Positions 1,176 through 54,634 of a stretch of DNA of 64,000 nt are shown piece by piece. This stretch comes from Bacteroidales bacterium (GTDB taxonomy: Bacteria; Bacteroidota; Bacteroidia; Bacteroidales; JAHJDW01), in assembly GCA_041671145.1 (NCBI GenBank), contig JBAZBZ010000014.1, positions 1,727-65,726 of the forward strand, read 5' to 3'. Every line of letters starts with the position of its first letter. The first letter of the stretch is position 1. Below the pieces are notes generated by a model. The model was not told the origin of the DNA. It did not search any database and saw only the letters and a program-made list of their open reading frames with translations. The position numbers and the translations under genes are program-made.

Positions 1176-4100
1176 TTATCTGATTACAGTAACATTTCCG
1201 TGAAAATCATATTCCTTATTATCTGTAGCTTTTGCTTTTATTATGTAATAGTATGTTCCATCGGAATGATTTCTTGCGTCCCAGCCGCTGTTAATATCCG
1301 ATGTTTCAAATAGTTTTACTCCCCAGCGATTGAAAATCATCATGCTGAATGTCGAAAATTCTCCTTTGTATTTAACTTTAAATATATCATTAAGCCCATC
1401 TGAATTGGGTGTTGTAATATTGAATACTTCGATATCCGATGGATTTATTACTTCAACATACAAGTCGTATTCGCTTTCGCACCCTTGCTGTGTTGTAACT
1501 TTTATTTTAATATGATACTTTCCTGTTTTTTCATATATATGTGTGGGATTTTCCAATGTGCTGTGCGTGCTGTCTCCAAAATCCCAATCGTATGTATTTC
1601 CGCTATTACCATTCCATGCATATTTGAATACATGTGTTATTAATCCTTTTATTGAATCAACGGCTGCTTCGCCATTCGGATATATTCCTATGTTGTTTAC
1701 TGTTATTGTTTTTTCGGACTTGCAGTTATGTGAATCTGTTACCGTAACTGTATATGTGCCTTGTGATAAGCTGTCTAATGGATTTGTCGTTTTTCCATTG
1801 TTCCAGCTATAAGTATATGATGCTCCTCCGCTTGTATCTATCTTTACTGAGCCACTGTTGTTCAGGCAAATTTCATCATTTACAATTTCACTAATAACTG
1901 GATTTGGATAAACAGTTATAATCGCCGAGCCAGTGTTGGTACAGCCATTGCCATCCGTACCGGTTACACTGTATGTCGTTGTTGTTGTCGGTGTAACATT
2001 TAATGGATTGCCTATAAAGCCCGTATTCCATATGTATGTCGCTCCATTGATTGCTGTAATGTTTGCGTTTGCTCCATTACATATTGTTGTCCCGTTTGCT
2101 GTGATGTTTGGTTTTGGGTTTACTGTTACTGTTGTTTGTGCTGTATTTGTACATCCCTCCCCATCTGTACCCGTTACATTATAAATTGTCGTTGTCGTCG
2201 GACTCACATTGTACGGATTGTTGTTTGAGCCCGTATTCCATGTGTATGTGTTTGCATTGCTTGCCGAAATATTTACATTTCCTCCATTGCAGATTGTTCC
2301 TCCTGCTACTGTGATGTTTGGTTTTGGGTTTACGGTTACTGTTGCTGTTGCTATATTTGTGCATCCATTGCCATCTGTGCCGGTTACTTGATATGTTGTT
2401 GTTGCAACTGGCGTTACTACTATTGATGTGCTTGCTCCACCGGGACTCCATGTGTATGTTGTTGCTCCTGAGCCCGTCAGTGTTGTTGTTGCTCCGTCGC
2501 ATATTATCGGACTGTTTGCGGTTACATTCGGTTTTGCATTTACTGTTACTATTGCCTGCGTTGTGTTTGTGCAATCACTTCCATCTGTACCCGTTACACT
2601 GTATGTCGTCGTATTTGCAGGGGTAACATTTAATGGATTGCCTATAAAGCCCGTATTCCATGTATATGTTGTTCCATTGCTTGCCGTAATATTTACACTT
2701 GCTCCGTTACATATTGTTGTCCCGTTTGCTGTGATGTTTGGTTTTTGGTTCACTGTTACTGTTGTTTGTGCTGTATTTGTACATCCCTCCCCATCTGTAC
2801 CTGTTACATTATAAATTGTCGTTGCCGTTGGACTCACGTTGTATGGATTATTATTTGAGCCCGTATCCCATGTATATGTGTTTGCATTGCTTGCCGAAAT
2901 ATTTACATTTCCTCCATTGCAGATTGTTCCTCCTGCTGCTGTGATGTTTGGTTTTACATTTACCGCTACTGTTGCTACTGCTGTGTTTGTACATCCAGCC
3001 CCATCTGTTCCGGTTACCGTATATGTTGTTGTTATGGTTGGCGTTACTACTATTGATGTGCCCGCTCCTCCCGGACTCCATGTGTATGTCGTCGCTCCTG
3101 AGCCCGTCAGTGTTGTTGTTGCTCCGTCGCATATTATCGGACTGTTTGCGGTTACTGTCGGTTTCGGATTTACTGTTACTATTGCCTGCGTTGTATTTGT
3201 GCAATCACTTCCATCTGTACCCGTTACACTGTATGTCGTCGTATTTGCCGGTGTAACATTTAACGGGTTACCTATAAAGCCCGTATTCCATGTATATGTT
3301 GTTCCATTGCTTGCTGTAATATTTACACTTGCTCCATTGCAGATTGTCGTTCCGTTTGCCGCAATATCTGGCTTCGGGTTCACTGTTACTGCTGCTGTTG
3401 CTATGTTCGTGCATTGGTTTGCATCTGTGCCGGTTACTGTGTACGTTGTTGTATTTGATGGGGTAACATTTAACGGGTTACCTATAAATCCCGTATTCCA
3501 TGTATATGTTGTTCCATTGATTGCTGTAATGTTTGCGTTTGCTCCGTTGCAGATTATTGTTCCATTTGCTGCTATGATTGGTTTTGGGTTTACGGTTACT
3601 GTTGCCTGTCCGGTTCCTGAACATCCCGATGCATTTACTCCTGTTACTGTGTATGTTGTTGTTAAGGTTGGAGCAACTGTTATATCTGAGCCCGTCAGAG
3701 AAATGTTCCATGTATATGATACTCCATTAAATGCAGAAACAACTGTTGTTGCTCCAAAGCAAATAGCAGGATTCGTTGTGTTGATTGAAATAGTGGGGTT
3801 CAATGAAACCGTGGCTTGTGCAGTATTCGTACAGCCATTAACATCCACTCCCGTAACTGTATATGTAGCTGCTGCTGTTGGCGTTACAATTAAAGGGTTG
3901 TCGATAAACCCCGTGCTCCATGTGTAATTCGTACCATTGCCTCCAACTACATTTATTGGCGACCCAGGGCAAGTAGAACCTCCGGTTGCTGTTACGTTTG
4001 GCTTGTTATTCACGGCTACTGTTGCCTGTGATGTATTTGTGCAGCTATTGGCATCTGTGCCGGTTACCGAATAAATCGTTGTTGATGTCGGATTTACATT

Positions 4101-7100
4101 GTATGGATTATTTGTTGAGCCCGTATTCCATGTGTATGTTGTTGCATTGTTTGCCGAAATATTTATATTCCCTCCTGTACATATTGTTCCTCCGGTTGCT
4201 GTTACATTCGGCTTGTTATTCACGGTTACTATCGCCTGTACGGTATTTGTGCAGCCATTGCCATCGGTTCCTGTCACCGTATATGTGATTGTTGCTGCGG
4301 GCATGACATTTAACGGATTACCTATATAGCCCGTATTCCATGTATATGTTGTTCCGTTGCTTGCTGTTATATTCACACTTGCTCCATTGCATATTGTTGC
4401 AGGGTTTGCTGTGATATTTGGTTTTGGGTTTACAATTACAACTGCTTGGGCTGTGTTTGTGCAGTTATTTCCATTTATACCTGTTACCATATACGTTGTA
4501 GTTATTGTTGGAGTTACTGCAATGGTTGAACCCATTTGATTAGTACTCCAAGTATAAGTCGTAGCTCCTCCTGCAATCATATTTGCTGAGTTACCAGCAC
4601 ATATTAAATTTCCCATTGTTGTTATGTATGGCAGAGGGTTGACTAATACTACCGCTTGTGCCGTTCCAGTGCATCCCGAAACATTTTTTCCTGTTACGTA
4701 ATATGTTGTAGTTATAGTAGGCGAAACTGTTTGCGATGAAACGCTTGAATTATTGTTCCACGTATATGTGTTGCCTCCGCTTACTGTTATTGTTGCTGTT
4801 TTTCCGTTGCAAATTGTACTTCCTGTTGTTGTTAAAGTGAGGTTATTGCTTACCGTTACAATGCACGAAGCAGTTCCAGTACATCCTGCCCCATCTGAGC
4901 CGGTTACAATGTATGTTGTGGTAATGGTTGGTGATACTGCTTGTGTTGAACTGTTTGAATTATTACTCCACGTATAAAAATTGGCTCCGCTTGCTGTTAT
5001 TGTTGCAGATACTCCTGAGCATATTGTGTTGCCTGTGGCGGTTAACGACATGCTTCCTGTTCCTCCGGTAAGTGTATAGTATAAAACAGTATCGGGCATA
5101 CAATAACTTGAAACGGTAACTGAATAATTGCCAGGGCATAGTGCAGTAGCTGTATTTGATGTAGAAGAAGTATTTAGTGTTTGCTGCCCATTGCTCCAAA
5201 CATAACTATAGTTGGGACAAGCACCACTGATAGTAACTGTTGCTGTGCCATTGCATGCACATGTAGTAGCATCAACCTGATTTTTAGTATAAACAGAACC
5301 AAATTTTACGATGAACGAATCGTCCCACCCATTATATGAATTATCAAAATATGCTCCTCCGCCCGGATTAACAAGAGTGGGATAAGTTGCTCCATAAGTT
5401 CCCTCACCTTCCATCATACATTCCCCTACAGCAAGTAAATAATTTTTGCGGTTAACAAGTAAGTTAATACGATTTTCTGTTCCATTTCCACCCCAAAATG
5501 TTGCCCAATTTAAAACACATGTATTTGTGAATTTTGTGAGAAATATATCCCCAAACCCTGCTCCCTGAAGTCCGGTATGAGCGCTACCATTATATGAATT
5601 ATCCTGATATCCGCTACAAACATTCGTCATAGTTGTTATATTTGAAGACATAGTTAAAAAACCAACATATAGGTTATCGCAATTATCAATAGCCATAGGA
5701 TGGGCACCAAGAGCATAACCGTCAGGACTATTACCACCGTAATAAGTAGCCCAAAGCCGAACGCCGTTACTTTTGAATTTTAAAATAAAAGCATCGTCAA
5801 AACCTCCACCATGAGAGCCCTGAAAAAATGCTCCATTACCAGGATTTAACAAAGGAAATTTTTTTGACCTTGTATGTCCACAAACAAAAATATTCCCGGA
5901 ATTATCGGTAATTACTCCATAAGCATCGTCATAATCAGAACCTCCATAATTGGTTGCCCAAAGCATTGTCCCCGTATTAGACATTTTACAAATAAAAACA
6001 TCACCCATTCCTGCATTTCCTGATTTATAATATGCACCTTCTCCGGGATTATAAGTTGGGATACTGGCGTTACCAGCACAACCCGTAATAATAAAGTTGT
6101 CGGAATTATCAACAGTGATAGAGTTTGCTACATGTCCTGCATTAGTCCCTCCTCCTCCATAATAAGTAGCCCAAAGCCGAACGCCCGAATTATTAAATTT
6201 AAGGATAAAAGCATCACCATAGATTGCGGCTTTTGCTGCCTGGTAATATGCACTGCCATAACTCTGAACAGGAAAAGCAGATGACCTGGTGTATCCCGTA
6301 ATAAAAATATTCTGATGGCTGTCAATTGCAATAGATTTACCCATATCGTCCCCATCAATCATATTTCCGTTTCCACCATAATAAGTTGCCCAAAGCCGAA
6401 CACCCTTATTGCTAAACTTCAAGATAAATGCATCCCATTGTCCACCGGCAAAAGTATTCTGAAAATAAGCACCGCCACTAGCATCAAAAATCGGAAAATC
6501 TGTTGAACCTGTACATCCTGTTGCAAATAAATTTCCTGCAGCATCAACAGCAAAATCTAATATCTGGTCATATCCATCTCCGCCATAGGCCGTACCCCAT
6601 AATAAAATACCAGAAGGAGAAAATTTCAATATCAAAGCATCGGAATGACCACCAGCACCGGTTCCCTGAAAATAAGCACCATCACCTGAATTATAAAGAG
6701 GTGGCATTGCGGGTTCACCAAAATATCCACCTATAAATATATTTCCTGCGTTATCTTCTTTAATAGAGGTAAATCCATCAAAATTATTACTTCCATACAA
6801 AGTATGCCATACAATCTGAGGGTCGATAACAAGCTGGCTTTTACGACTTACTCCATTAAGAGAAGAAATGTTAAACTTAACAGATGTTTCAAAACCCTCT
6901 TCTTCATTTATTTTTAAAGATTTTGTATTGTTTTGCGTAAAATTCGTTTTTATTTCTTTGCCATCATAAAAACTCACAGGAGTATTTTCTTTTATATTGC
7001 CATATATAGTATATAATTCCAATTGCCCGGATTCATTTATTTTAACAGGCGTTTTGCTTTTGTAAAGCAATTCTATTTGCCGGTAATCGGCATCTGGATT

Positions 7101-8036
7101 AACAATAAAATCATATTTCAGAGTACCATCCTCTTTTCTATAAAATACCCAGTCAATACCTCTGTAAACATTTTTTATAGTAATTTTTTCATACTCTTTT
7201 ACTTCATTAATACCATCAGGACAATTTGGCAGAAAATAATTAAAATGACCTTGAAGCATCATTTCTTTTATTATATTGTTTTTTTGAATCCTTGCTCCAT
7301 TAAGCTCAACATCAATTCGTTCCCAGTCAATAAATTTTTTTGTTTTCTGCTTACCCCTCATTTTAATTTCTTCGTCTTTTGACTTATCAAGTTTACTTAC
7401 AGGTATTTCTTCTTTTCTTATTTTCATGGTTTCTATTGTTATTCCTTTATCTGTAATCCAGAAAATTATTCCGGGAGATTCTGCTCTGAAAAGAACATGT
7501 GAAGCAAGATTGCCATCCATATCTATCATCTGCCCTTTGTTTTCAATAAAACCTTTATTGTTTTGATTTGACAGCCATTGTTGAGCTTTTGCCAATATTT
7601 CAGAAGTATTTTTTTTGTTTTCAACAGAAATTACGGAAGAATAATTTGGTACAATAGGAACTGTCTGCTTTACAGAAGTCGATATATTTTCATTATCGGC
7701 AATACTTTCTTTTATTATGGGCTTTATGGTGACGGTATTATCGGGTTGCAGAGATGTTTGGGCTTGCAGATGGATTGCAAATAAAAGAAATAAAATGAAG
7801 TATAAGGTACGATGTATGAAGTTGGGATTTTCATAATTTGTATTTTTTACTTCGTGTTTGTTATTCATTTTTTCCTGTTCAAATGGATAAATTGCATCCC
7901 GACGAGCTTCGCTATCGGGATAGAAATTCACATTACTATAATCAATTTCTCTTGCATTTCGGAATGCTTTAATTATTAATTTAACTACCCATGCTATAAG
8001 TAGTACGGCTAATGATAGTATTGTTATTTTTGTCAT
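1176..8036 (-). CDS. Giant T9SS-secreted adhesin: N-terminal domain, SBBP beta-propeller repeats, 15 Ig-like repeats, PKD domain and type B (gliding-motility) C-terminal sorting domain
   Basis: 2286-aa ORF. It contains repeated YGGxxxDxxxxIxxDxxGNIFxxGxTxSxxFP beta-propeller motifs and 15 x 70-aa Cys-containing Ig-like units. A PKD-like segment reads FGDSTHSTLENPTHIYEKTGKYHIKIKV. The C-terminus TPNSDGLNDIFKV...FNRWGVKLFE...GTYYYIIKA is typical of the type B T9SS sorting domain. Start is ambiguous. The ORF opens at 8036 with a TM-like segment, but the Met at 7868 (MNNKHEV...LYFILFLLFAIHLQAQT) gives a normal signal peptide. Confidence 0.9.
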   Translation of the reverse strand: MTKITILSLAVLLIAWVVKLIIKAFRNAREIDYSNVNFYPDSEARRDAIYPFEQEKMNNKHEVKNTNYENPNFIHRTLYFILFLLFAIHLQAQTSLQPDNTVTIKPIIKESIADNENISTSVKQTVPIVPNYSSVISVENKKNTSEILAKAQQWLSNQNNKGFIENKGQMIDMDGNLASHVLFRAESPGIIFWITDKGITIETMKIRKEEIPVSKLDKSKDEEIKMRGKQKTKKFIDWERIDVELNGARIQKNNIIKEMMLQGHFNYFLPNCPDGINEVKEYEKITIKNVYRGIDWVFYRKEDGTLKYDFIVNPDADYRQIELLYKSKTPVKINESGQLELYTIYGNIKENTPVSFYDGKEIKTNFTQNNTKSLKINEEEGFETSVKFNISSLNGVSRKSQLVIDPQIVWHTLYGSNNFDGFTSIKEDNAGNIFIGGYFGEPAMPPLYNSGDGAYFQGTGAGGHSDALILKFSPSGILLWGTAYGGDGYDQILDFAVDAAGNLFATGCTGSTDFPIFDASGGAYFQNTFAGGQWDAFILKFSNKGVRLWATYYGGNGNMIDGDDMGKSIAIDSHQNIFITGYTRSSAFPVQSYGSAYYQAAKAAIYGDAFILKFNNSGVRLWATYYGGGGTNAGHVANSITVDNSDNFIITGCAGNASIPTYNPGEGAYYKSGNAGMGDVFICKMSNTGTMLWATNYGGSDYDDAYGVITDNSGNIFVCGHTRSKKFPLLNPGNGAFFQGSHGGGFDDAFILKFKSNGVRLWATYYGGNSPDGYALGAHPMAIDNCDNLYVGFLTMSSNITTMTNVCSGYQDNSYNGSAHTGLQGAGFGDIFLTKFTNTCVLNWATFWGGNGTENRINLLVNRKNYLLAVGECMMEGEGTYGATYPTLVNPGGGAYFDNSYNGWDDSFIVKFGSVYTKNQVDATTCACNGTATVTISGACPNYSYVWSNGQQTLNTSSTSNTATALCPGNYSVTVSSYCMPDTVLYYTLTGGTGSMSLTATGNTICSGVSATITASGANFYTWSNNSNSSTQAVSPTITTTYIVTGSDGAGCTGTASCIVTVSNNLTLTTTGSTICNGKTATITVSGGNTYTWNNNSSVSSQTVSPTITTTYYVTGKNVSGCTGTAQAVVLVNPLPYITTMGNLICAGNSANMIAGGATTYTWSTNQMGSTIAVTPTITTTYMVTGINGNNCTNTAQAVVIVNPKPNITANPATICNGASVNITASNGTTYTWNTGYIGNPLNVMPAATITYTVTGTDGNGCTNTVQAIVTVNNKPNVTATGGTICTGGNINISANNATTYTWNTGSTNNPYNVNPTSTTIYSVTGTDANSCTNTSQATVAVNNKPNVTATGGSTCPGSPINVVGGNGTNYTWSTGFIDNPLIVTPTAAATYTVTGVDVNGCTNTAQATVSLNPTISINTTNPAICFGATTVVSAFNGVSYTWNISLTGSDITVAPTLTTTYTVTGVNASGCSGTGQATVTVNPKPIIAANGTIICNGANANITAINGTTYTWNTGFIGNPLNVTPSNTTTYTVTGTDANQCTNIATAAVTVNPKPDIAANGTTICNGASVNITASNGTTYTWNTGFIGNPLNVTPANTTTYSVTGTDGSDCTNTTQAIVTVNPKPTVTANSPIICDGATTTLTGSGATTYTWSPGGAGTSIVVTPTITTTYTVTGTDGAGCTNTAVATVAVNVKPNITAAGGTICNGGNVNISASNANTYTWDTGSNNNPYNVSPTATTIYNVTGTDGEGCTNTAQTTVTVNQKPNITANGTTICNGASVNITASNGTTYTWNTGFIGNPLNVTPANTTTYSVTGTDGSDCTNTTQAIVTVNAKPNVTANSPIICDGATTTLTGSGATTYTWSPGGASTSIVVTPVATTTYQVTGTDGNGCTNIATATVTVNPKPNITVAGGTICNGGNVNISASNANTYTWNTGSNNNPYNVSPTTTTIYNVTGTDGEGCTNTAQTTVTVNPKPNITANGTTICNGANANITAINGATYIWNTGFIGNPLNVTPTTTTTYSVTGTDGNGCTNTGSAIITVYPNPVISEIVNDEICLNNSGSVKIDTSGGASYTYSWNNGKTTNPLDSLSQGTYTVTVTDSHNCKSEKTITVNNIGIYPNGEAAVDSIKGLITHVFKYAWNGNSGNTYDWDFGDSTHSTLENPTHIYEKTGKYHIKIKVTTQQGCESEYDLYVEVINPSDIEVFNITTPNSDGLNDIFKVKYKGEFSTFSMMIFNRWGVKLFETSDINSGWDARNHSDGTYYYIIKAKATDNKEYDFHGNVTVIR
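1905..5058 (-). repeat. Tandem array of 15 x 210-nt (70-aa) coding repeats inside the giant adhesin
   Basis: The protein shows 15 consecutive units, roughly KPNITANGTTICNGxxVNITASNGTTYTWNTGFIGNPLNVTPxxTTTYxVTGTDxxGCTNTAQAxVTVN. Boundaries come from my codon mapping: unit 15 ends at the YP codons near 1905-1910, and unit 1 starts near 5058. Confidence 0.9.
2115..3374 (-). repeat. Two copies of a 630-nt higher-order repeat (3 units each; 2115-2744 and 2745-3374)
   Basis: Antisense ORFs in the track recur at exactly +630 nt (2108/2738, 2209/2839, 2318/2948) with almost identical translations. Protein units 9-11 and 12-14 are near-identical. Confidence 0.85.
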
Positions 8037-8436: not shown

Positions 8437-8548
8437 ATTAATTATTGCTTGCAAGAAAACTGCCGAAAAATGATTTTCAATGGCTTTTTGCCCTTAATCC
8501 CTGAAGGAAAGCCATTGAAAATCAGCCATCCGTCAGTTAGGATTAGAG
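8437..8548 (-). repeat. Structured repeat family, copy A (truncated, reverse orientation relative to copy B)
   Basis: TGCAAGAAAACTGCCGAAAAATGATTTTCAATGGCTTTTTGCCCTTAATCCCTGAAGGAAAGCCATTGAAAATCAGCCA aligns almost base for base with the reverse complement of 44376-44450. Confidence 0.6.
8466..8524 (-). terminator. Probable intrinsic terminator of the TPR/LuxR regulator gene, formed by repeat copy A
   Basis: Perfect 15-bp stem TGATTTTCAATGGCT (8471-8485) / AGCCATTGAAAATCA (8510-8524). On the minus strand it is followed directly by TTTTT (8470-8466). It lies 61 nt downstream of the stop at 8585. Confidence 0.5.
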
Positions 8549-8584
8549 TAAAAAACATCTGAATATTGAGTTTTTGAGAGGTGT

Positions 8585-13854: not shown

Positions 13855-14057
13855 ATGAAATATCCATGCAAGCAAAAAAAGTTGCACAAACCGTATAATG
13901 ATTAAAAATTCAGTGCTATTTTCAACGAAGAAATGCATGGATATTCACGAGCGGGTTGAGGGGATGGACTTTTGCGGGAGCGAGTAACTAAAAAAGCAAA
14001 AAAAACAGAACAGCAAATTAACAGCAGAAATATTAATTACTTACAAAATTTAAACAG
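13855..14057 (+). promoter_or_regulatory. Conserved leader, copy U1 (homologous to 17721-17859)
   Basis: Blocks shared with U2: TATGAAATATCCATGCAA, G(C/T)GAGTAACTAAAAAAG(C/T)AAAA, ATTAATTACT and AAAATTTAAACAGATGAAA. A GC-rich core sits in an AT-rich spacer. Internal inverted repeat GAAATATCCATGCA (13857-13870) / TGCATGGATATTC (13934-13946). Confidence 0.45.
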
Positions 14058-14540
14058 ATGAAAAAAATAGTTTTACTTATCGGAATGTTGATATGCGGAT
14101 ATGCATACAGTCAAAGCGTAAGCCCTGAAGTTATCGCCTCATCAGGCGAATATTTTATAGGCACAAATGCAACACTAAGCTGGACACTCGGCGAACCGGT
14201 TACCGAAACTTTTACCGGAACAAATAATATTTTAACTCAAGGATTTCAGCAAAAATACGATATTGGAGCTATTATAGAGGAAAAGGAAAATTTATATCAG
14301 ATAAGTGTTTTTCCAAATCCTGTAAAAGATGTGTTGAATGTTAATATTAATTTAGGTTTTGATAACCAATACACCTCGCAGTTATTCGATATGCAGGGGC
14401 AATTATTAACGAGTAACAGTTTTACAGGAAATACAGAAAATATTAATATGGCTTCTTTTTCTGTAGGCAGCTATTTTTTAAAAATAAATAACTCAAAAGG
14501 AGAAACTATTAAAACATTTAAAATTGTCAGGAATTATTAA
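14058..14540 (+). CDS. Small secreted protein with T9SS type A C-terminal sorting domain (cassette gene A1)
   Basis: Signal peptide, the conserved N-terminal block SQSVSPEVIASSGEYFIGTNATLSWTLGEPVTETFTGTNNILTQGFQQ, and a C-terminal ISVFPNPVKDVLNVNIN...LFDMQGQLL...GSYFLKINN sorting domain. Confidence 0.8.
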   Translation: MKKIVLLIGMLICGYAYSQSVSPEVIASSGEYFIGTNATLSWTLGEPVTETFTGTNNILTQGFQQKYDIGAIIEEKENLYQISVFPNPVKDVLNVNINLGFDNQYTSQLFDMQGQLLTSNSFTGNTENINMASFSVGSYFLKINNSKGETIKTFKIVRNY

Positions 14541-14634
14541 TTAATATCATTCTGTATTTTTCTCATAAACATATTATTTATATTTATAATCACAAACAAA
14601 TATTTAAAATTATTAACCTTTAAAAATTAAACAA

Positions 14635-15726
14635 ATGAAAAAAGTTTTATTATTATTATCAATTTTTACGAGTACCGCACTCGTTTTTGCACAGAAAGAA
14701 ACAAGAATAGACCCGTTTCCACAGGCATTCAAATATCAAGCTGTAGTGAGAAATATAGCAGGTAATCCGATTATTAACCAGAAAGTAAATTTTCAAATAA
14801 GCATTCTGCAAGGAAGCGCCACGGGGACGGCAGTGTATGTTGAAACACAAATTGACACCACAAACAGTTTTGGTTTAGCAAATTTAGAAATTGGAAGAGG
14901 AAGCGTAGTAAGTGGAACATTTTATACTATTAACTGGGGAAATGATTCCTATTTTGTAAAAGTAGAAATTGATGTTGCAGGTGGAACAACTTTCGCTTTT
15001 ATGGGAACCACGCAACTATTAAGCGTTCCTTATGCTTTGTATGCTAAAACAAGTGAAACATCTGGACCGGCAGGAACATCCGGTCAAACATTAAGACATG
15101 ATGGCACAAACTGGGCTGCAAATAGTTTATTATATAATAATGGTACATCCATTGGTATAGGGACAACATCTCCTGGAGCAAAATTACATATTGCCGGAGG
15201 ACACATGATATTAGACCACACAAATCCAATGTTTAATTTTATTGATGGAGCTACATATAAAACATTTCTTCAGGCAATTAATAATGATTTCTATATTGGA
15301 AATAGATTAGCCGGTAATATTATTTTCAGGACAAGTAATGTTAATAAAATGAGCTTGAAAGATAATGGCTGGCTCGATTTATCTTTTGCAAACAGCAAGG
15401 TTATACGTTCGGCAGAAACCGATACAGCAAATGTTGTAGCTGTAGCTTATGGAAATATAACCTCTGCGGGAGTAAAAAATGCTGATGGAAGTACAAATAA
15501 TTTTACTGTTTCAAAAGCTGGAACAGGATATTATGAAATTACATGGACAAATGGCTTAATTACAAATTATGCTAAAGCTGCAATTAGTGTTACTACAACC
15601 TATGGCAACGCCAGAATTACTTCATGGACAAGTTCCGGTGGCGGTACTGTTTTAATCGTAAAAATATACGATGCAGCAGGAACATTGGTTGATGATGCGT
15701 TTTCGTTTATAGTTTTCAAACCGTAA
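14635..15726 (+). CDS. Secreted fibre-like protein (cassette gene B1)
   Basis: Signal peptide. The N-terminal domain FKYQAVVRN...[11 protein letters not shown] is shared with 16387..17706. The GIGTTSPGAKLHI segment is reminiscent of tail-fibre-like proteins. No T9SS C-terminal domain is seen. Confidence 0.75.
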   Translation: MKKVLLLLSIFTSTALVFAQKETRIDPFPQAFKYQAVVRNIAGNPIINQKVNFQISILQGSATGTAVYVETQIDTTNSFGLANLEIGRGSVVSGTFYTINWGNDSYFVKVEIDVAGGTTFAFMGTTQLLSVPYALYAKTSETSGPAGTSGQTLRHDGTNWAANSLLYNNGTSIGIGTTSPGAKLHIAGGHMILDHTNPMFNFIDGATYKTFLQAINNDFYIGNRLAGNIIFRTSNVNKMSLKDNGWLDLSFANSKVIRSAETDTANVVAVAYGNITSAGVKNADGSTNNFTVSKAGTGYYEITWTNGLITNYAKAAISVTTTYGNARITSWTSSGGGTVLIVKIYDAAGTLVDDAFSFIVFKP

Positions 15727-15746
15727 AACTTTAAAATATACTAATG

Positions 15747-15790
15747 AAATAGCTGTTTGGCAAAATAATTCTAAGCAGCTATTTGTATTT
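15747..15790 (+). terminator. Hairpin plus T-rich tail after gene B1
   Basis: AAATAGCTGTTTGG (15747-15760) pairs with CTAAGCAGCTATTT (15771-15784), 14 bp including 2 G-U pairs, around a 10-nt loop. GTATTTT follows. Confidence 0.45.
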
Positions 15791-15796
15791 TCACAC

Positions 15797-15804
15797 TATC
15801 TTTG
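15797..15804 (+). promoter_or_regulatory. Bacteroidota -7 box (TAnnTTTG) for the second cassette
   Basis: TATCTTTG lies upstream of the ATG at 15886. Confidence 0.45.
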
Positions 15805-15885
15805 CAAAAATTATACAAGTTGAAAAAATCTAAAAACATTTATTGCGGGACTGATTTTATTGATAAAACAATTAATTACAAAAAA

Positions 15886-16368
15886 ATGAAAAAATTATTT
15901 TTTATTATAGGAATATTGGCATGCGGATATGCATACAGTCAAAGCGTAAGTCCTGAAGTTATTGCTTCATCAGGCGAATATTTTATAGGCACAAATGCAA
16001 CATTAAGCTGGACACTCGGCGAACCGGTTACCGAAACTTTTACCGGAACAAATAATATTTTAACTCAGGGATTTCAGCAAAAATATGATATTGCAACCAT
16101 TCAGGAAGAAAATAAAAACACATATCAAATTAGTGTTTTCCCGAATCCAACAAAAGACGTGCTGAATGTAATTATTAATTTAGGTTTAGATAATAAATAC
16201 ACCACTCAGTTATTCGATATGCAAGGAAAATTATTAGTAAGCAACAGTTTTACGGGAAACAGTGAAAGTATTAATATGAACCCTTTTACTTCCGGCAATT
16301 ACCTTTTGAGAATAAACAACTCAAAAGGAGAAATAATAAAAACATTAAAGATTGTCAGGAATTATTGA
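15886..16368 (+). CDS. Small secreted protein with T9SS type A sorting domain (cassette gene A2, paralog of 14058..14540)
   Basis: The ORF track starts at a TTG at 15802. The Met at 15886 (MKKLFFIIGILACGYAYSQ) matches the A1 start. Nucleotides 15922-16092 differ from 14094-14264 at only 6 positions by my count, all synonymous. Confidence 0.8.
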   Translation: MKKLFFIIGILACGYAYSQSVSPEVIASSGEYFIGTNATLSWTLGEPVTETFTGTNNILTQGFQQKYDIATIQEENKNTYQISVFPNPTKDVLNVIINLGLDNKYTTQLFDMQGKLLVSNSFTGNSESINMNPFTSGNYLLRINNSKGEIIKTLKIVRNY

Positions 16369-16386
16369 TAAAAATTTTAAACTTAA

Positions 16387-17706
16387 ATGTATATGAAAAA
16401 AGTTTTAGTATTTAGTGTAATGTGCTTTATAATTGTTGAATTATCATTTGCACAGGCACCACAGGCATTCAAATATCAAACTGTTGTAAGGGACGCAAGC
16501 GGCAACCCGCTCACAAATCAAAAGGTAAATTTCAGAATTAGCATTTTGCAAAATAGCACAGTCGGAATTTCTGTTTATACTGAAAGACAAATTGACACTA
16601 CAAACAATTTTGGATTGGCAAATATTGAAATCGGAAAAGGAACTCTTGTAAGCGGAAATTTTTCAAATATCAGCTGGGGTACAGATAAATATTATATACA
16701 AATTGAAATTGACCCAGCTGGAGGAAATACTTTTGCCCTGATGGGAACATCACAATTACTAAGTGTTCCGTATGCTTTATATGCTGAAAATTCTGGTACA
16801 GCTGGTTCCACAGGACCAACAGGAGGTCAAGGACCCCAAGGACCCATAGGCGGTCAAGGAGCTATAGGTTCTACCGGAGCAACAGGTTCAGCAGGTGTAA
16901 CGGGACCAACAGGTAATAATGGTTCAGCAGGAGCAACTGGAATTACAGGCCCAACAGGACCCATAGCAGGTGCAGATAAGCAACTTATTTTTAATGATGA
17001 CGGAAACGCCGGAGCATCTGCCGAATTGACTTATGACAAAACTTCAAAACATTTGGCTATCGGAACGGCAATGCCCGCTGCAAGTGCAGCATTAGAAGTA
17101 AATTCAACTACAGGCGCTCTCTTGGTTCCGAGAATGACAACCACTCAAAGAGACGCTCTCTCACCGGTGGCAGGAATGATTATTTACAATACAACAACAA
17201 ATAAATTTCAGGGCTATGTGTTAGGAATACCAGATACTACTAAATATGGAAATACTGATTATAATACGTCTTATGGTAATGCCTTAGGAGAAGATATAGG
17301 TCATCATGTTTTTATACCTCCTTCAAATACTTATGTAACTTCTATCAGAATCTGGATTTCGTCTTTACAATCCAGCGTATCAACTACATTGAGCATTTAT
17401 GATGATAAAAATACTCAATGCAGCGGAAATCCAACAAATCTCGGAACATCATTGCCGAAAACAGTTACACCGAGCGCATGGAATACATTTGTTTTTTCAA
17501 CACCTGTTGCTGTAACATCGGGAGTAAATTATCATATATGGTCTCCCGTGACATTAGCGATTGATGGAGCAACCGATAATCCTTCAAACACAATAACTAA
17601 TTGGTATGAAGCTGATTTTATGATGATGTGTTCTGATAATTCATACGACAGAGCCATTGAAATTTCAACAGTTTTAAACCCATCAATTTGGGTAAATTTA
17701 CATTAA
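16387..17706 (+). CDS. Secreted collagen-like repeat protein (cassette gene B2)
   Basis: Signal peptide and the same FKYQ...SVPYALYA N-terminal domain as B1. An uninterrupted G-X-Y run follows ([56 protein letters not shown]), then a unique C-terminal domain. Confidence 0.8.
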
Positions 17707-44226: not shown

Positions 44227-44310
44227 TGTTTAATAATAAAAACAACAATTTAACAATTTTATTTCAGTAAAAGTTAAGTTCTAAGCCGTTTGTAGAATAT
44301 TCGTAAAATA

Positions 44311-44463
44311 TAATTAGAGTCAGCAAGAAAACACCTGTTTTTGAAAATCAGCTTTTGCCCCAACCCTAAAGGGTGGCTGATTTTCAATGGCTTCCCTTTA
44401 GGGATTAAGGGTAAAAAGCCATTGAAAATCATAATTCGGCGGTTTTCTTGCAGCCACTAATTA
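44311..44463 (+). repeat. Structured repeat family, copy B (apparently complete, with imperfect 22-nt terminal inverted repeats)
   Basis: Ends TAATTAGAGTCAGCAAGAAAAC / GTTTTCTTGCAGCCACTAATTA match at 17 of 22. There are two perfect, overlapping hairpins (44341-44352/44376-44387 and 44378-44392/44417-44431). The loops are complementary to each other. Confidence 0.65.
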
Positions 44464-44515
44464 TGAATATTGCGAAATTAATAAAAATAAATTTGGAAAT
44501 TATCTTTTTTCACTC

Positions 44516-51820: not shown

Positions 51821-54634
51821 ATGCTGGCATTGAAGTCCCTAAAAATTGAGTATGGTTTTTTTAGTGTGCATCTAAGAACTGAATTTTCAGATGTTTTTGC
51901 CCCAACCCTAAAGGGTGAAACATCTGAAAATTTGCCTCCCTTTAGGGTTTGGGATAAAGCAAATTTTCAGATATTCAAGGTATTCTTTATATTCTTTTTT
52001 TTATTATTCTCTTTTAATTTTTCTTTTTCGCAGAATATTGAAAATAAAATAACAATTAAAGAAAAAGATAAAACACTCGGTGAAATTATAAATGAAATAA
52101 GCGATTTGGGTAAGGTAAATTTTTCGTACAGTCCATCGCTACTACCTCTCGATAAAAAAATAACTATAAAAGCAAAAAACAAAACTATAAAAGAGATTTG
52201 CGATGAAATTTTCACAAAGAATGGAATTGACTACATAGTTGTGGAAAAACAAATAGTTCTGAAGCCACATAAAAAAGAAGATATTCAAAACAAAGAGGAA
52301 AAACAAGTCCCAAAAGAAAAACCTAAATACACAATAAGCGGATATGTAAAAGATAAAACCACCGGCGAAATTCTGATTGGCGCAACAGTTTACATAAAAG
52401 GAACAACTACCGGAAATAATACAAATGCTTATGGATTTTATTCATTGACTTTGCCTGAAGGCAATTATAAACTTGCGACTTCATTTATCGGTTATAAAAA
52501 TATTGTACAGGATTTGGAGTTGAAATCAAATCAGAAAATTTCGATGGATATGGAAGTTGAAAAAATTGAAATTAAAGCTGTTGAAATAAAAGTAGAAGAG
52601 AAACCTGAAGAAGTGATAAGAGAAAATCAGTTTGGCAATATGAAATTATCTCCGAGAACAATCACGAAAATGCCCGGTTTTGTTGGCGAGGTTGATATAA
52701 TAAAGTCGTTGCAGGCAGTTCCCGGAATTAAATCTTATGGCGATGGTTCTTCACTTTTTTATGTTCGCGGGGGAAACAGTGACCAGAATTATATTTTACT
52801 TGATGAAGCTCCTATTTACAATCCTTCACATTTATTCGGATTCTTTTCTGCTTTTGCCCCCGATGCAATAAAAGACATTGAAGCATACAAAGGCGATTTT
52901 CCCGCAAACTACGGCGGAAGATTATCTTCTGTTATTGACATTAAATCGAAAGACGGAAACATGAAGAAACTTTGTTTCGGCGGAAGTATAGGATTATTTA
53001 CTTCAAATCTTTCATTTGAAGGACCTTTTAAAAAAGATAAAAGCTCTTTTTATATTTCATTAAGGCGCTCAAATCTTGAATGGCTTATAATTCCATTAAC
53101 AAAAACCACTAATAATTTAAAATTCGGATTTTCAGATTTTAATACAAAACTTAATTTCAGGATTAATGATAACAACCGCCTTTTTTTCACTATTTATGGA
53201 GGCAAAGACGAATATAGCATGATAGGTACATCTAAAATAAATACCAATGGAATAAGTTGGACTAATTTTTTATTTACAACACGATGGAATCATATTTTTA
53301 GTAATAAGCTTTTTTCAAATACAACATTATATACAAGTAATTATAATTATTATTTATACATTTCCAGAGGACTTAAAGATTACTGGAATTCGTCAATAGG
53401 AAATTTCAATATTAAAACCGATTTTACTTATTACCCTAATCCCAAAAACACAATTAAAACCGGAATAGATTTCGGAACTCATATTTCAAATCCCGGTAAT
53501 ATGAGCTTGTCTGATAAAGCCATTCAAGAACAAATACCGACTGTTCCAAAATACAATTCGCATGAACTTGATTTTTATTTAAGCAACGACCATAAAATAA
53601 ATGAAAAAATTTCAATACGATATGGCTTTAGAATTCCTACATGGAAGGATTTTGGAGAAACAACCGTATATCATTATAATGTAAATTATGAGGTTATGGA
53701 TACGCAGAAAGTTGATAGTAAAACCGTATATTCAACTTTTGTCAGCTTTGAACCAAGAATAAATATTACATATTCCATAAATAAAAGTTCATCATTAAAA
53801 GCCGACTACAGCAGAACAACACAATTCATACAATTATTATCAAATTCAATAAGTCCGTTTACATCACTTGAAGTGTGGGCTCCAAGCGGACCAACTATAA
53901 AACCACAGAAAGCAGACCAATTCTCCGTTGGTTACTTTCAAGGGCTTTTAAAATCAAAACTTGTATTTTCGGTAGAACCATTTTACAAAATATTCTATAA
54001 TCAGATTGATTATAAAGACCACGCCAATATGCTTTTCAATCCATTGCTCGAAGGAGAACTACGATTCGGAAAAGCTTGGTCGTATGGAACGGAATTTATG
54101 TTCAGAAAGATGGAAGGTAAATTCAGCGGCTGGATTGGATATACCTATTCGCGAACATTTAAGCAAATTAAAGGAATAAACAATAATGAAAAATATCCGG
54201 CTTCTTATGACAGACCTCATGATGTTTGCATAAATTTATCTTACAATGTCAAACACTGGATATTTTCGGCAGGATGGATATATGCTACCGGCGGTGCCAT
54301 AACAACTCCAACAGGTTTCTATTATTATAACGGATACAATGTTCCTGTTTATGACTCAAAAAATAATGCTCGCCTTCCCGATTATCACAGATGGGATATT
54401 TCCATAACATACAATATAAACAAACCGGAAAGAAAATATCAACACAGTTTTGTTTTCACATTGTATAACGCTTATGGCAGAGCAAATCCTTTTTCAGTAA
54501 ACTTTAATAAAATAATGACAGATAACGGTAAGTTTGTTTTACCAACAAACCTTAACGGTGATTATAAAATTATCCCGACAACTATTTCTGTGGCGGGAGT
54601 TATTCCATCAATATCATATAATTTTAAATTTTAA
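51821..54634 (+). CDS. TonB-dependent receptor with N-terminal STN signalling domain and CarboxypepD_reg-like domain
   Basis: STN-like ITIKEKDKTLGEIINEIS...IVLKP, then the CarboxypepD_reg-like YTISGYVKDKTTGEILIGATVYIKG, a plug (IKSLQAVPGI...VRGG), and a beta-barrel ending in F. The signal peptide (KVFFIFFFLLFSFNFSFSQ) begins only at residue ~53 of the ATG-initiated ORF. TTG at 51932 or GTG at 51866 are alternative starts. Confidence 0.85.
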   Translation: MLALKSLKIEYGFFSVHLRTEFSDVFAPTLKGETSENLPPFRVWDKANFQIFKVFFIFFFLLFSFNFSFSQNIENKITIKEKDKTLGEIINEISDLGKVNFSYSPSLLPLDKKITIKAKNKTIKEICDEIFTKNGIDYIVVEKQIVLKPHKKEDIQNKEEKQVPKEKPKYTISGYVKDKTTGEILIGATVYIKGTTTGNNTNAYGFYSLTLPEGNYKLATSFIGYKNIVQDLELKSNQKISMDMEVEKIEIKAVEIKVEEKPEEVIRENQFGNMKLSPRTITKMPGFVGEVDIIKSLQAVPGIKSYGDGSSLFYVRGGNSDQNYILLDEAPIYNPSHLFGFFSAFAPDAIKDIEAYKGDFPANYGGRLSSVIDIKSKDGNMKKLCFGGSIGLFTSNLSFEGPFKKDKSSFYISLRRSNLEWLIIPLTKTTNNLKFGFSDFNTKLNFRINDNNRLFFTIYGGKDEYSMIGTSKINTNGISWTNFLFTTRWNHIFSNKLFSNTTLYTSNYNYYLYISRGLKDYWNSSIGNFNIKTDFTYYPNPKNTIKTGIDFGTHISNPGNMSLSDKAIQEQIPTVPKYNSHELDFYLSNDHKINEKISIRYGFRIPTWKDFGETTVYHYNVNYEVMDTQKVDSKTVYSTFVSFEPRINITYSINKSSSLKADYSRTTQFIQLLSNSISPFTSLEVWAPSGPTIKPQKADQFSVGYFQGLLKSKLVFSVEPFYKIFYNQIDYKDHANMLFNPLLEGELRFGKAWSYGTEFMFRKMEGKFSGWIGYTYSRTFKQIKGINNNEKYPASYDRPHDVCINLSYNVKHWIFSAGWIYATGGAITTPTGFYYYNGYNVPVYDSKNNARLPDYHRWDISITYNINKPERKYQHSFVFTLYNAYGRANPFSVNFNKIMTDNGKFVLPTNLNGDYKIIPTTISVAGVIPSISYNFKF
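51882..51972 (+). repeat. Structured repeat family, copy C, lying inside the annotated 5' end of the TonB-dependent receptor ORF
   Basis: Hairpin 1 is AATTTTCAGATGTTT (51882-51896) / AAACATCTGAAAATT (51918-51932). Hairpin 2 is ATCTGAAAATTTGC (51922-51935) / GCAAATTTTCAGAT (51959-51972). The loop TTGCCCCAACCCTAAAGGGTG is identical to copy B. Confidence 0.65.

Follow-up and report, generated by a model that had tools for sequence, protein, structure and literature searches.

Miniature palindromic repeats across Bacteroidota and their probable partnership with DUF559 nuclease elements

The DNA analysed here is a 64-kb stretch (the window) of a Bacteroidales genome from a groundwater metagenome, which carries three copies (A, B and C) of a repeat in which two conserved units, L and L′, alternate with complementary arms. 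We consider it probable that these copies belong, as miniature and non-coding elements, to a palindromic mobile repeat family found throughout Bacteroidota, similar to repetitive extragenic palindromes (REPs) and MITEs (miniature inverted-repeat transposable elements), and that they are non-autonomous partners of elements carrying a DUF559 gene. This reading draws on what was observed of the repeat, namely its anatomy, distribution and arm covariation, on related copies that behave as MITEs, and on the association of L and L′ with DUF559 genes in both statistics and position. The original prediction, made from the letters of the window, could not place the repeat in any element class and treated L and L′ as loops. 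The repeats can now be placed among the REP-, REPIN- and MITE-like palindromic repeats. Judged from the loci described below, where L and L′ form an inverted pair of REP-like units (head plus mini-hairpin) flanking DUF559 genes, the two appear to be conserved functional units, the ends or flanks of such genes, and not passive loops.

Direct reading of the window confirmed all the quoted repeat sequences at their given positions, and with them the three predicted copies. Copies B (44310–44464) and C (51882–51972) share the layout arm–L–arm′–L′–arm, as had been proposed. L is 21–23 nt long (TTTTGCCCCAACCCTAAAGGGTG) and the same in both copies, and L′ is an inverted, imperfect copy of it, which agrees with the earlier description of the first and second loops. 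The middle arm can pair with either outer arm, and in each copy ~10 nt are common to both hairpins. The claim that the arms remain complementary holds for B and C and only in part for copy A (8437–8570), in which the outer arm, of C type, is unpaired and L has decayed. Copy A lies on the strand opposite to copy B, with 98 nt that are 88% complementary to positions 44366–44463 of B, and the alignment shows its middle arm, L′, third arm and outer repeat to be of B type. Because this B-type hairpin is joined to a decayed L and an unpaired C-type outer arm, copy A is a chimera of types B and C, in a decayed state. Terminal inverted repeats (TIRs) are present in copy B (the left and right shells in Table 1), and the bases outside the repeat that were inspected for a target-site duplication (ATAATT and AATTAT) themselves belong to the inverted repeat. 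Copy C has no TIRs, and no target-site duplication was seen around it.

The copies are well above chance in number and in folding. With up to three mismatches allowed, CCCCAACCCTAAAGGG gave three matches in the window against 0.21 expected, and the pattern L core–N14–34–L′ core gave two against 0.00 expected; pattern searches found no copies in the 64 kb beyond A, B and C. Folded as single-stranded DNA, the window copies had z-scores of −3.3 to −6.3 relative to shuffled sequences.

A family scan with the query TTTNNCCCNAACCCTAAAGGG, covering one genome per species, returned at least 120 loci, so that the genome-wide family suspected from three copies in 64 kb is in fact phylum-wide. L is carried by Flavobacteriales, Bacteroidales, Saprospiraceae, Chitinophagales, Cytophagia and Chlorobiota, and by one member of the Victivallales. 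Nearly all of these loci have the same layout, with arms that differ by lineage yet remain complementary. Across the L loci listed, the anatomy can be refined to core–p–[L]–p′–core′–q′–[L′]–q–core, in which p and q are variable and the core is a semi-conserved A-tract, GAAAATC or GATTTTC; the element reads alike from both strands. The spacing from L to L′ is 20–24 nt in 53 of 88 pairs; at longer spacings (30–70 nt) there are two separate, non-overlapping hairpins, and solo hairpins of the form arm–L–arm′ are also common among the matches listed. To quantify covariation, arms were permuted between elements over 17 non-redundant arm classes. The two real stems scored 9.7 and 10.7 compared with 4.9 and 5.0 after swapping, and 76% and 88% of real stems exceeded the permuted 95th percentile. 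The arms therefore covary around a conserved L, with complementarity kept beyond the arm-swap level, in agreement with the earlier claim of conserved loops and covarying arms, and the arms of further copies likewise stay complementary.

In a Saprospiraceae metagenome-assembled genome (MAG; L036:5240–5320), arm 1, L and the middle arm are near-identical to those of copy B over ~50 nt, which suggests strong conservation or transfer of an arm type between orders. A related hairpin family occurs on viral contigs (L003, L007, L008, L011, L012, L014, L016, L017, L019 and L020), where ACCCCTAACCCCTAAAGGGG is followed by a conserved ~32-nt loop with TACTAAC and then by CCCCTTTAGGGGTTAGGGGT; in one metagenome locus (L173:2860–3460) a DUF559 gene lies between two directly repeated copies of a hairpin much like it.

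The association with DUF559 is clearest in three Flavobacterium genomes, where a gene for a 130-aa DUF559 protein stands amid alternating L/L′ arrays (Table 1) and L units abut or overlap its stop codon. The 21-mer of copy B L recurs identically beside the gene of one of these arrays, L023 of Flavobacterium sp. 7A, in three exact copies. In a Cyclobacteriaceae locus (L089), L lies immediately 3′ of the DUF559 gene. An independent test used 80 metagenome loci that were picked purely by protein similarity to DUF559 alignment A1 and represent the clade closest to the Flavobacterium proteins. Here, the density of the strict core CCCTNAAGGG was 28-fold higher within 250 nt of the gene (2.06 per kb) than elsewhere in the same loci (0.073 per kb); at least one core lay near the gene in 39 of the 80 loci, and cores lay on both sides in 22. 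Orientation was also biased, with 31 plus (L) and 12 minus cores upstream of the gene compared to 27 minus (L′) and 9 plus cores downstream. When a fuzzy motif was used, L was found nearby in 52 of the 80 loci.

Many of these DUF559 genes are bounded by clean TIRs of 25–30 nt (e.g. CCCCCTGTCCCCCTAAAGGGGAGACTTAG ... CTAAGTCTCCCCTTTAGGGGGACAGGGGG). Homology among copies in unrelated flanks spans ~490 bp, exactly from TIR to TIR, showing that L–DUF559–L′ is a discrete unit; there are no target duplications around it. Other DUF559 genes are flanked by whole doublets (L148, L151 and L173) or by arrays, in the way that REP-associated tyrosine transposase (RAYT) genes are flanked by bacterial interspersed mosaic elements (BIMEs). 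Two subtypes of unit occur near DUF559 genes. In the first, which is that of the window, the mini-hairpin is 3 bp and an outer stem usually surrounds the unit; in the second, the internal hairpin is 4–10 bp and there is no such stem. Outer stems scoring at least 7 were found for 29% of DUF559-adjacent L units versus 2.8% of permuted pairs. The arms AAATTTTCG and CGAAAATTT recur in related Flavobacterium elements (L143, L156, L038 and L062), which indicates that arms travel with the element and are not made at each site. Two metagenome loci (L195 and L203) have the same flanks and carry the ~490-bp cassette in opposite orientations; either the cassette flipped by recombining across its inverted ends, or it entered this site twice, independently.

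The Flavobacterium protein matches the Pfam family DUF559 (PF04480) with E-values of 6e-36 and 1e-33. Its closest solved relatives are 3HRL, a DUF559 protein of Neisseria (E = 3.6e-19), and 3R3P, the Vsr-like homing endonuclease I-Bth0305I (E = 0.018). Residues D63, E74, D76 and H80 are invariant in alignment A1. On these similarities, the DUF559 partner is predicted to be an endonuclease with a Vsr fold, of the PD-(D/E)XK type.

DUF559 cassettes also occur within protein-coding genes. A whole L–DUF559–L′ cassette lies in frame within metH, the gene for B12-dependent methionine synthase (L211:1726–4845, L221:1657–4923, and also L098 and L214), between the B12-binding cap and the B12-binding domain, and no intein or intron was seen at these metH cassettes. 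The C-rich and G-rich cassette ends translate to Pro/Gly-rich linker peptides, which may be why the ~490-bp cassette can live in frame in essential genes. At another locus (L190:711–2150), a DUF559 domain bracketed by L-like units is joined in frame to, and lies upstream of, a GHMP-kinase (homoserine-kinase-like) gene.

Related copies behave as MITEs. In the Bacteroidales MAG JAWOBQ01 there are ~30 near-identical copies of ~150 bp with TIRs GAGTCCGGTCTAAAAAG and mostly clean 6-bp A/T-rich target duplications; these TIRs and duplications identify them as true MITEs. The outer repeat of copy B is a diverged form of this JAWOBQ01 shell, so the MITE-like character that had been noted from the TIRs of copy B extends to target duplication in its relatives. 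In other lineages the same L module sits in different shells, e.g. TACTTTGACAGATTAA, ATGAATATCCGT and GCATTTTGAG. The JAWOBQ01 shell also has a short form of 71 bp, with a single arm and no L or L′, at separate sites (Table 1). The arm of this short form is a mosaic of arm 1 and arm 3, compatible with either of two histories: the short form may be the target into which L–arm′–L′–arm inserted, or a deletion product of recombination between outer arms. A search of the at least 120 loci for an autonomous parent found neither a transposase nor any long element with shell ends at its borders. MITE shells of this kind probably account for some of the repeats' spread. Some MITEs lie close to riboswitches: at L138:6764–7300 two different MITEs, one of them with the L module, stand between a thiamine pyrophosphate (TPP) riboswitch and its thiS gene, and at L053 a cobalamin riboswitch begins ~90 nt after an L-module MITE.

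We propose the following model for the DUF559 partnership. The functional unit would be a C-rich head (TTTT-R-CCCC-AA) followed by a mini-hairpin (CCC-TAAA-GGG), used as the inverted pair L/L′, and the enzyme would recognize head and mini-hairpin on extruded or single-stranded DNA. The arrangement of L and L′ around a DUF559 gene would correspond to that of REPs and BIMEs around a RAYT gene, and the miniature elements would retain just the two end units. L could be presented by its own internal palindrome or, in the subfamily of the window, at the tip of an outer A/T-rich stem. In the most compact elements, with 20–24 nt between L and L′, the stems share one strand, giving arm–L–arm′–L′–arm and mutually exclusive hairpins. 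The arms may covary because the stem sequence is free to drift under a pairing constraint, and L would be conserved because the protein recognizes it. Recombination at L between copies could account for the identical L of B and C and for the chimeric copy A. From the sequences we infer an action on DNA and not on RNA, in which the DUF559 protein would bind or cut L in DNA hairpins or cruciforms and in this way spread or maintain the repeats; the nuclease might make a nick from which copying starts, home through the repair of breaks, or act as a cruciform resolvase. Many copies, including B, sit centrally in a longer inverted-repeat shell that acts as an ordinary MITE with a 6-bp duplication. 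The original prediction had named templated propagation as an alternative to selection on structure. In related genomes the arms are passed on together with the element, which speaks against their fresh synthesis at each insertion; given the 71-bp single-arm form beside the three-arm form, templated propagation is still a possible alternative.

Several points weigh against a DUF559 partnership. There is no DUF559 gene within the 64-kb window, and only 5 of the at least 120 repeat-centred loci contain one, most listed copies being far from such a gene; this is expected if the enzyme acts in trans, though it is not proof. Even with the fuzzy motif, 28 of the 80 DUF559 loci have no L-like motif within 250 nt of the gene. 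PD-(D/E)XK nucleases cut DNA and do not join it, so the chemistry of transposition is not obvious. The shells with 6-bp duplications, and the 71-bp form, which lacks L and still duplicates its target, mean that an unrelated DDE transposase could drive at least some of the spread. The direction of the relation can also be read in two ways, L and L′ being either element ends or a homing target into which the gene moved.

The most direct alternative is that the repeats are ordinary MITEs derived from a DDE-type insertion sequence, in which the outer repeats with their 6-bp duplications account for all the movement, L/L′ is inert or hitch-hiking, and proximity to DUF559 results from a shared insertion preference or from invasion of the repeat by the gene. 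The TIRs and duplications of the ~30 JAWOBQ01 copies fit this explanation, as does the 71-bp form, whose own duplications indicate that the shell moves without the module, and the shells do differ between lineages. However, L is conserved phylum-wide and the shells are not, although functional shell ends would predict the reverse. A shell is missing from copy C and from many others, the ~490-bp DUF559 units in unrelated flanks end exactly at L and L′, and no transposase gene bounded by shells was found among the at least 120 loci. We regard a purely DDE-driven origin as rather unlikely. Less likely again is a homing scenario, in which an L–X′–L′ pair would be the uninterrupted target of a DUF559 homing endonuclease gene that integrates between L and L′ and is copied into further repeats by break repair, while the repeats spread by other means. 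The position of the gene exactly between L and L′, the relationship of its protein to I-Bth0305I, the lack of target duplications around the ~490-bp units and the occurrence of both cassette orientations at one site (L195 and L203) would all suit homing, but many DUF559 genes have entire doublets or arrays on their flanks and are not placed inside one pair (L148, L151, L173 and L023), and the cassette is also found in frame in metH, where there is no pre-existing repeat.

An explanation at the level of RNA, i.e. a riboswitch- or attenuator-like switch between the exclusive hairpins or a small RNA gene, would account for the compensatory arm changes, the conserved loop sequence and the stable predicted folds. 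Nevertheless, neither the window nor 24 of the loci gave an Rfam match for the element at gathering or even permissive thresholds, as the original prediction had left to be checked; the only hits were tRNAs and TPP and cobalamin riboswitches elsewhere, with weak generic microRNA-hairpin matches to the element. The layout is identical on both strands, and the gene context shows no consistent direction: of 146 elements in the loci and the window, 12 are inside long open reading frames (ORFs) and 33 at locus edges, and the remaining 101, with genes on both sides, comprise 58 co-directional, 29 divergent and 14 convergent settings. Since the elements occur in either orientation, are rarely convergent and lie inside transposon shells, an RNA switch is unlikely; they are also multi-copy with target duplications, and their units serve as inverted ends of a gene cassette. 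Taken together, we give a structured-RNA origin very little credence. The same counts, with 14 of the 101 classifiable elements convergent versus 29 divergent, do not suit a 3′-UTR element or, together with loops of 21–24 nt and A/T-rich stems, an intrinsic terminator, in keeping with the earlier view that the layout is not that of a classical terminator. Finally, REP/BIME repeats served by RAYTs (Y1 HUH enzymes) have a similar architecture of inverted hairpin doublets and alternating arrays, and a Bacteroidetes-specific RAYT subclass, 2.6, has 'atypical' REPs (Quentin et al. 2018, PMC6006769). The REPs listed for that subclass are, however, GC-rich hairpins unlike and unrelated to L (PMC6006769). 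L lacks the GT[AG]G at the hairpin foot and has the head TTTTRCCCCAA instead, and the one RAYT-like ORF among the at least 120 loci has canonical GTAG REPs, in place of L, on its flanks. This alternative is largely refuted, and we consider it barely tenable.

With the DUF559 partnership as the preferred reading, the family can be compared with known systems. High-copy intergenic hairpin units in inverted doublets and alternating arrays are present, as in the REP/BIME/REPIN and RAYT system ('REPtron'), whose short intergenic palindromes have the same arrangement. Both systems also have a small nuclease gene flanked by repeats, and in both the structure is kept while the stem sequence varies with lineage. 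The two differ in that the partner gene of L encodes a DUF559 (Vsr-fold) nuclease and not a Y1 HUH enzyme, that the GT[AG]G foot is missing, that the conserved part of L is a C-rich head and a 3-bp mini-hairpin in the loop of a variable stem, and that in L elements the two stems can share a strand. Like the bacterial MITEs Correia/NEMIS, ERIC/IRU, RUP and Nezha, the elements are 90–170 bp long, intergenic, equipped with TIRs and present in many copies per genome, with target-site duplications in related copies. Unlike in those MITEs, the part conserved across the phylum is internal (L/L′) and the outer ends vary by lineage, no parent insertion sequence with a transposase was found among the at least 120 loci, and the internal units stand on either side of a nuclease gene.

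The DUF559 protein has its superfamily, small size, selfish context and insertion in conserved genes in common with Vsr-like (EDxHD) homing endonucleases, I-Bth0305I among them, and with those of the 'fractured gene' type. Known Vsr-like homing endonucleases reside in group I introns or between split inteins, whereas the L-family gene has inverted hairpin repeats at its borders and, where it lies in metH, is translated in frame with no intein present. The ends of IS200/IS605 elements also resemble the repeats, as they function through sub-terminal hairpins recognized as structure, with complementarity between sequences just outside and just inside the element end, but L elements have no TnpA or TnpB, their complementary stretches are 10–17 nt compared to 4–5 nt, and no HUH chemistry is implied. 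In the literature searched, no paper linked DUF559 with repeats; searches with sequence strings gave no relevant paper, and a paper on a Cardinium MITE proved unrelated to L repeats. The L–DUF559 system seems to be a so far undescribed variation on REP/RAYT, with an enzyme not previously tied to such repeats.

A parallel exists in Escherichia coli K-12, where ycjD, annotated as DUF559, has an inverted pair of C-tract/G-tract hairpin repeats at its 3′ end (Table 1). One repeat is TCCCCTCACCCTAACCCTCTCCCCAGAGGGGCGAGGGGA, and the other overlaps the stop codon. The TCCCCTCACCCTAACCCTCTCCCCAGAGGGGCGAGGGGA family is dispersed in all 5426 complete E. coli genomes, in a median of 16 places per genome, and the 11-mer ACCCTAACCCT is common to the E. 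coli repeat and L variants. Similar to the L family, this repeat is dispersed and forms an inverted pair beside a DUF559 gene; in contrast, its hairpin is longer and G+C-rich, it has no A/T-rich outer arms, it belongs to a different phylum, and its link with YcjD is one locus. It may be the old 'box C' family. Box C has been described as a 56-bp family of 33 copies (PMC5172473). It is conceivable, although we hold it to be less than an even chance, that DUF559 proteins with a Vsr fold constitute a second, RAYT-independent class of enzymes that make or maintain REP-like hairpin repeats across phyla, with the L family and the E. coli ycjD repeat as instances.

In the window, all three copies lie clear of annotated domains. 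Copy A is located between a gene for a TPR/LuxR-type regulator and that for a giant repeat protein, copy B between the divergently transcribed uvrA and an extracytoplasmic function (ECF) sigma factor gene, and copy C directly after a FecR gene and ahead of, or possibly in the first codons of, a TonB-dependent receptor gene. The receptor ORF (51821–54634; STN, Plug and barrel domains) runs in frame through copy C, with L translated as APTLKG and L′ as PPFRVW. As there is no ATG, GTG or TTG from copy C to the signal-peptide-like FKVFFIFFFLLFSF, the true start of the receptor is uncertain. Arm 1 of copy C includes an ATG, and the equivalent position of arm 3 is ATA. The arms of copy C might be taken for duplicated host sequence with the receptor start codon in it, but copy A and another MAG (L026) have the same arm, which weakens this reading. 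As ECF sigma, FecR and TonB-receptor genes adjoin copies B and C, a link to RNA-guided transcription (dCas12f with an ECF sigma factor) was also considered; no connection was found, the window loci being of the canonical sigma–FecR type. A comparison of flanking proteins for empty sites of the window copies returned, as its sole result, a contig of the same population (L223; Logan SRR18595301_27843), which stops ~95 nt after the FecR gene, inside copy C, indicating that the repeat breaks short-read assemblies.

The window has further repetitive features. The giant repeat protein is encoded by a 2286-aa ORF on the minus strand (1176–8036) with ~15 tandem repeats of 210 nt (70 codons) at 1900–5045. 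A collagen-like run of GGN-NNN-NNN triplets (Gly-X-Y coding repeats) is located at 16803–16971, and two paralogous segments ~1.8 kb apart lie at 14052–16758, with identities of 87% over 300 nt and 70% over a further 300 nt. Genes starting at 14054, 15882 and 18629 have a common signal-peptide-like opening, which suggests a small tandem gene family.

Table 1. Positions of repeat parts in the window and of related features at other loci
Feature	Position	Strand	Sequence or remark
Copy B left outer inverted repeat (shell), imperfect	44310–44337	+	ATAATTAGAGTCAGCAAGAAAACACCTG; homologous to GAGTCCGGTCTAAAAAG-type MITE ends of related genomes
Copy B arm 1	44341–44352	+	TTGAAAATCAGC; partner 44376–44387
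Copy B L unit	44353–44375	+	TTTTGCCCCAACCCTAAAGGGTG; head TTTTGCCCCAA plus mini-hairpin CCC-TAAA-GGG
Copy B middle arm	44376–44392	+	GCTGATTTTCAATGGCT; hairpin 1 with arm 1, hairpin 2 with arm 3
Copy B L′ unit	44393–44416	+	TCCCTTTAGGGATTAAGGGTAAAA; L inverted, imperfect
Copy B arm 3	44417–44431	+	AGCCATTGAAAATCA; partner 44378–44392
Copy B right outer inverted repeat (shell), imperfect	44437–44464	+	CGGCGGTTTTCTTGCAGCCACTAATTAT
Copy C arm 1	51882–51896	+	AATTTTCAGATGTTT
Copy C L unit	51897–51917	+	TTGCCCCAACCCTAAAGGGTG
Copy C middle arm	51918–51935	+	AAACATCTGAAAATTTGC
Copy C L′ unit	51936–51958	+	CTCCCTTTAGGGTTTGGGATAAA
Copy C arm 3	51959–51972	+	GCAAATTTTCAGAT
Copy A outer shell repeat	8437–8470	−	Homologous to copy B right shell
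Copy A intact B-type hairpin	8472–8526	−	On the + strand: arm TGATTTTCAATGGCT, inverted L′ TTTTGCCCTTAATCCCTGAAGGAA, arm AGCCATTGAAAATCAGC
Copy A decayed L, then C-type outer arm	8527–8570	−	CATCTGAATATTGAG (outer arm), pairing lost; from alignment
DUF559 gene in L/L′ array, Flavobacterium	L023 4034–4426; L038 7223–7615; L062 7204–7596		
71-bp short form	L053:1518; L055:6268; L080:3368; L116:109; L133:4389; L139:5227		Own 6-bp target duplication each
ycjD and hairpin pair	L225:2690–2925 = NC_000913 1351189–1351424		

Few bacteria of gut, soil and ocean have been studied as thoroughly as the Bacteroidota, yet the literature searched describes no REP-like system in them beyond the GC-rich hairpins associated with RAYTs. 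If the link with DUF559 holds, it would give a function to a very large family of 'unknown function', including YcjD of E. coli, and would explain phylum-wide intergenic repeats that break assemblies and sit in promoter regions. The in-frame metH cassettes represent a route by which a selfish nuclease gene enters essential genes without an intron or intein. The link would also mean that the logic of the REP/RAYT system, in which a single-copy nuclease is paired with many hairpin repeats, has evolved at least two times with unrelated enzymes.

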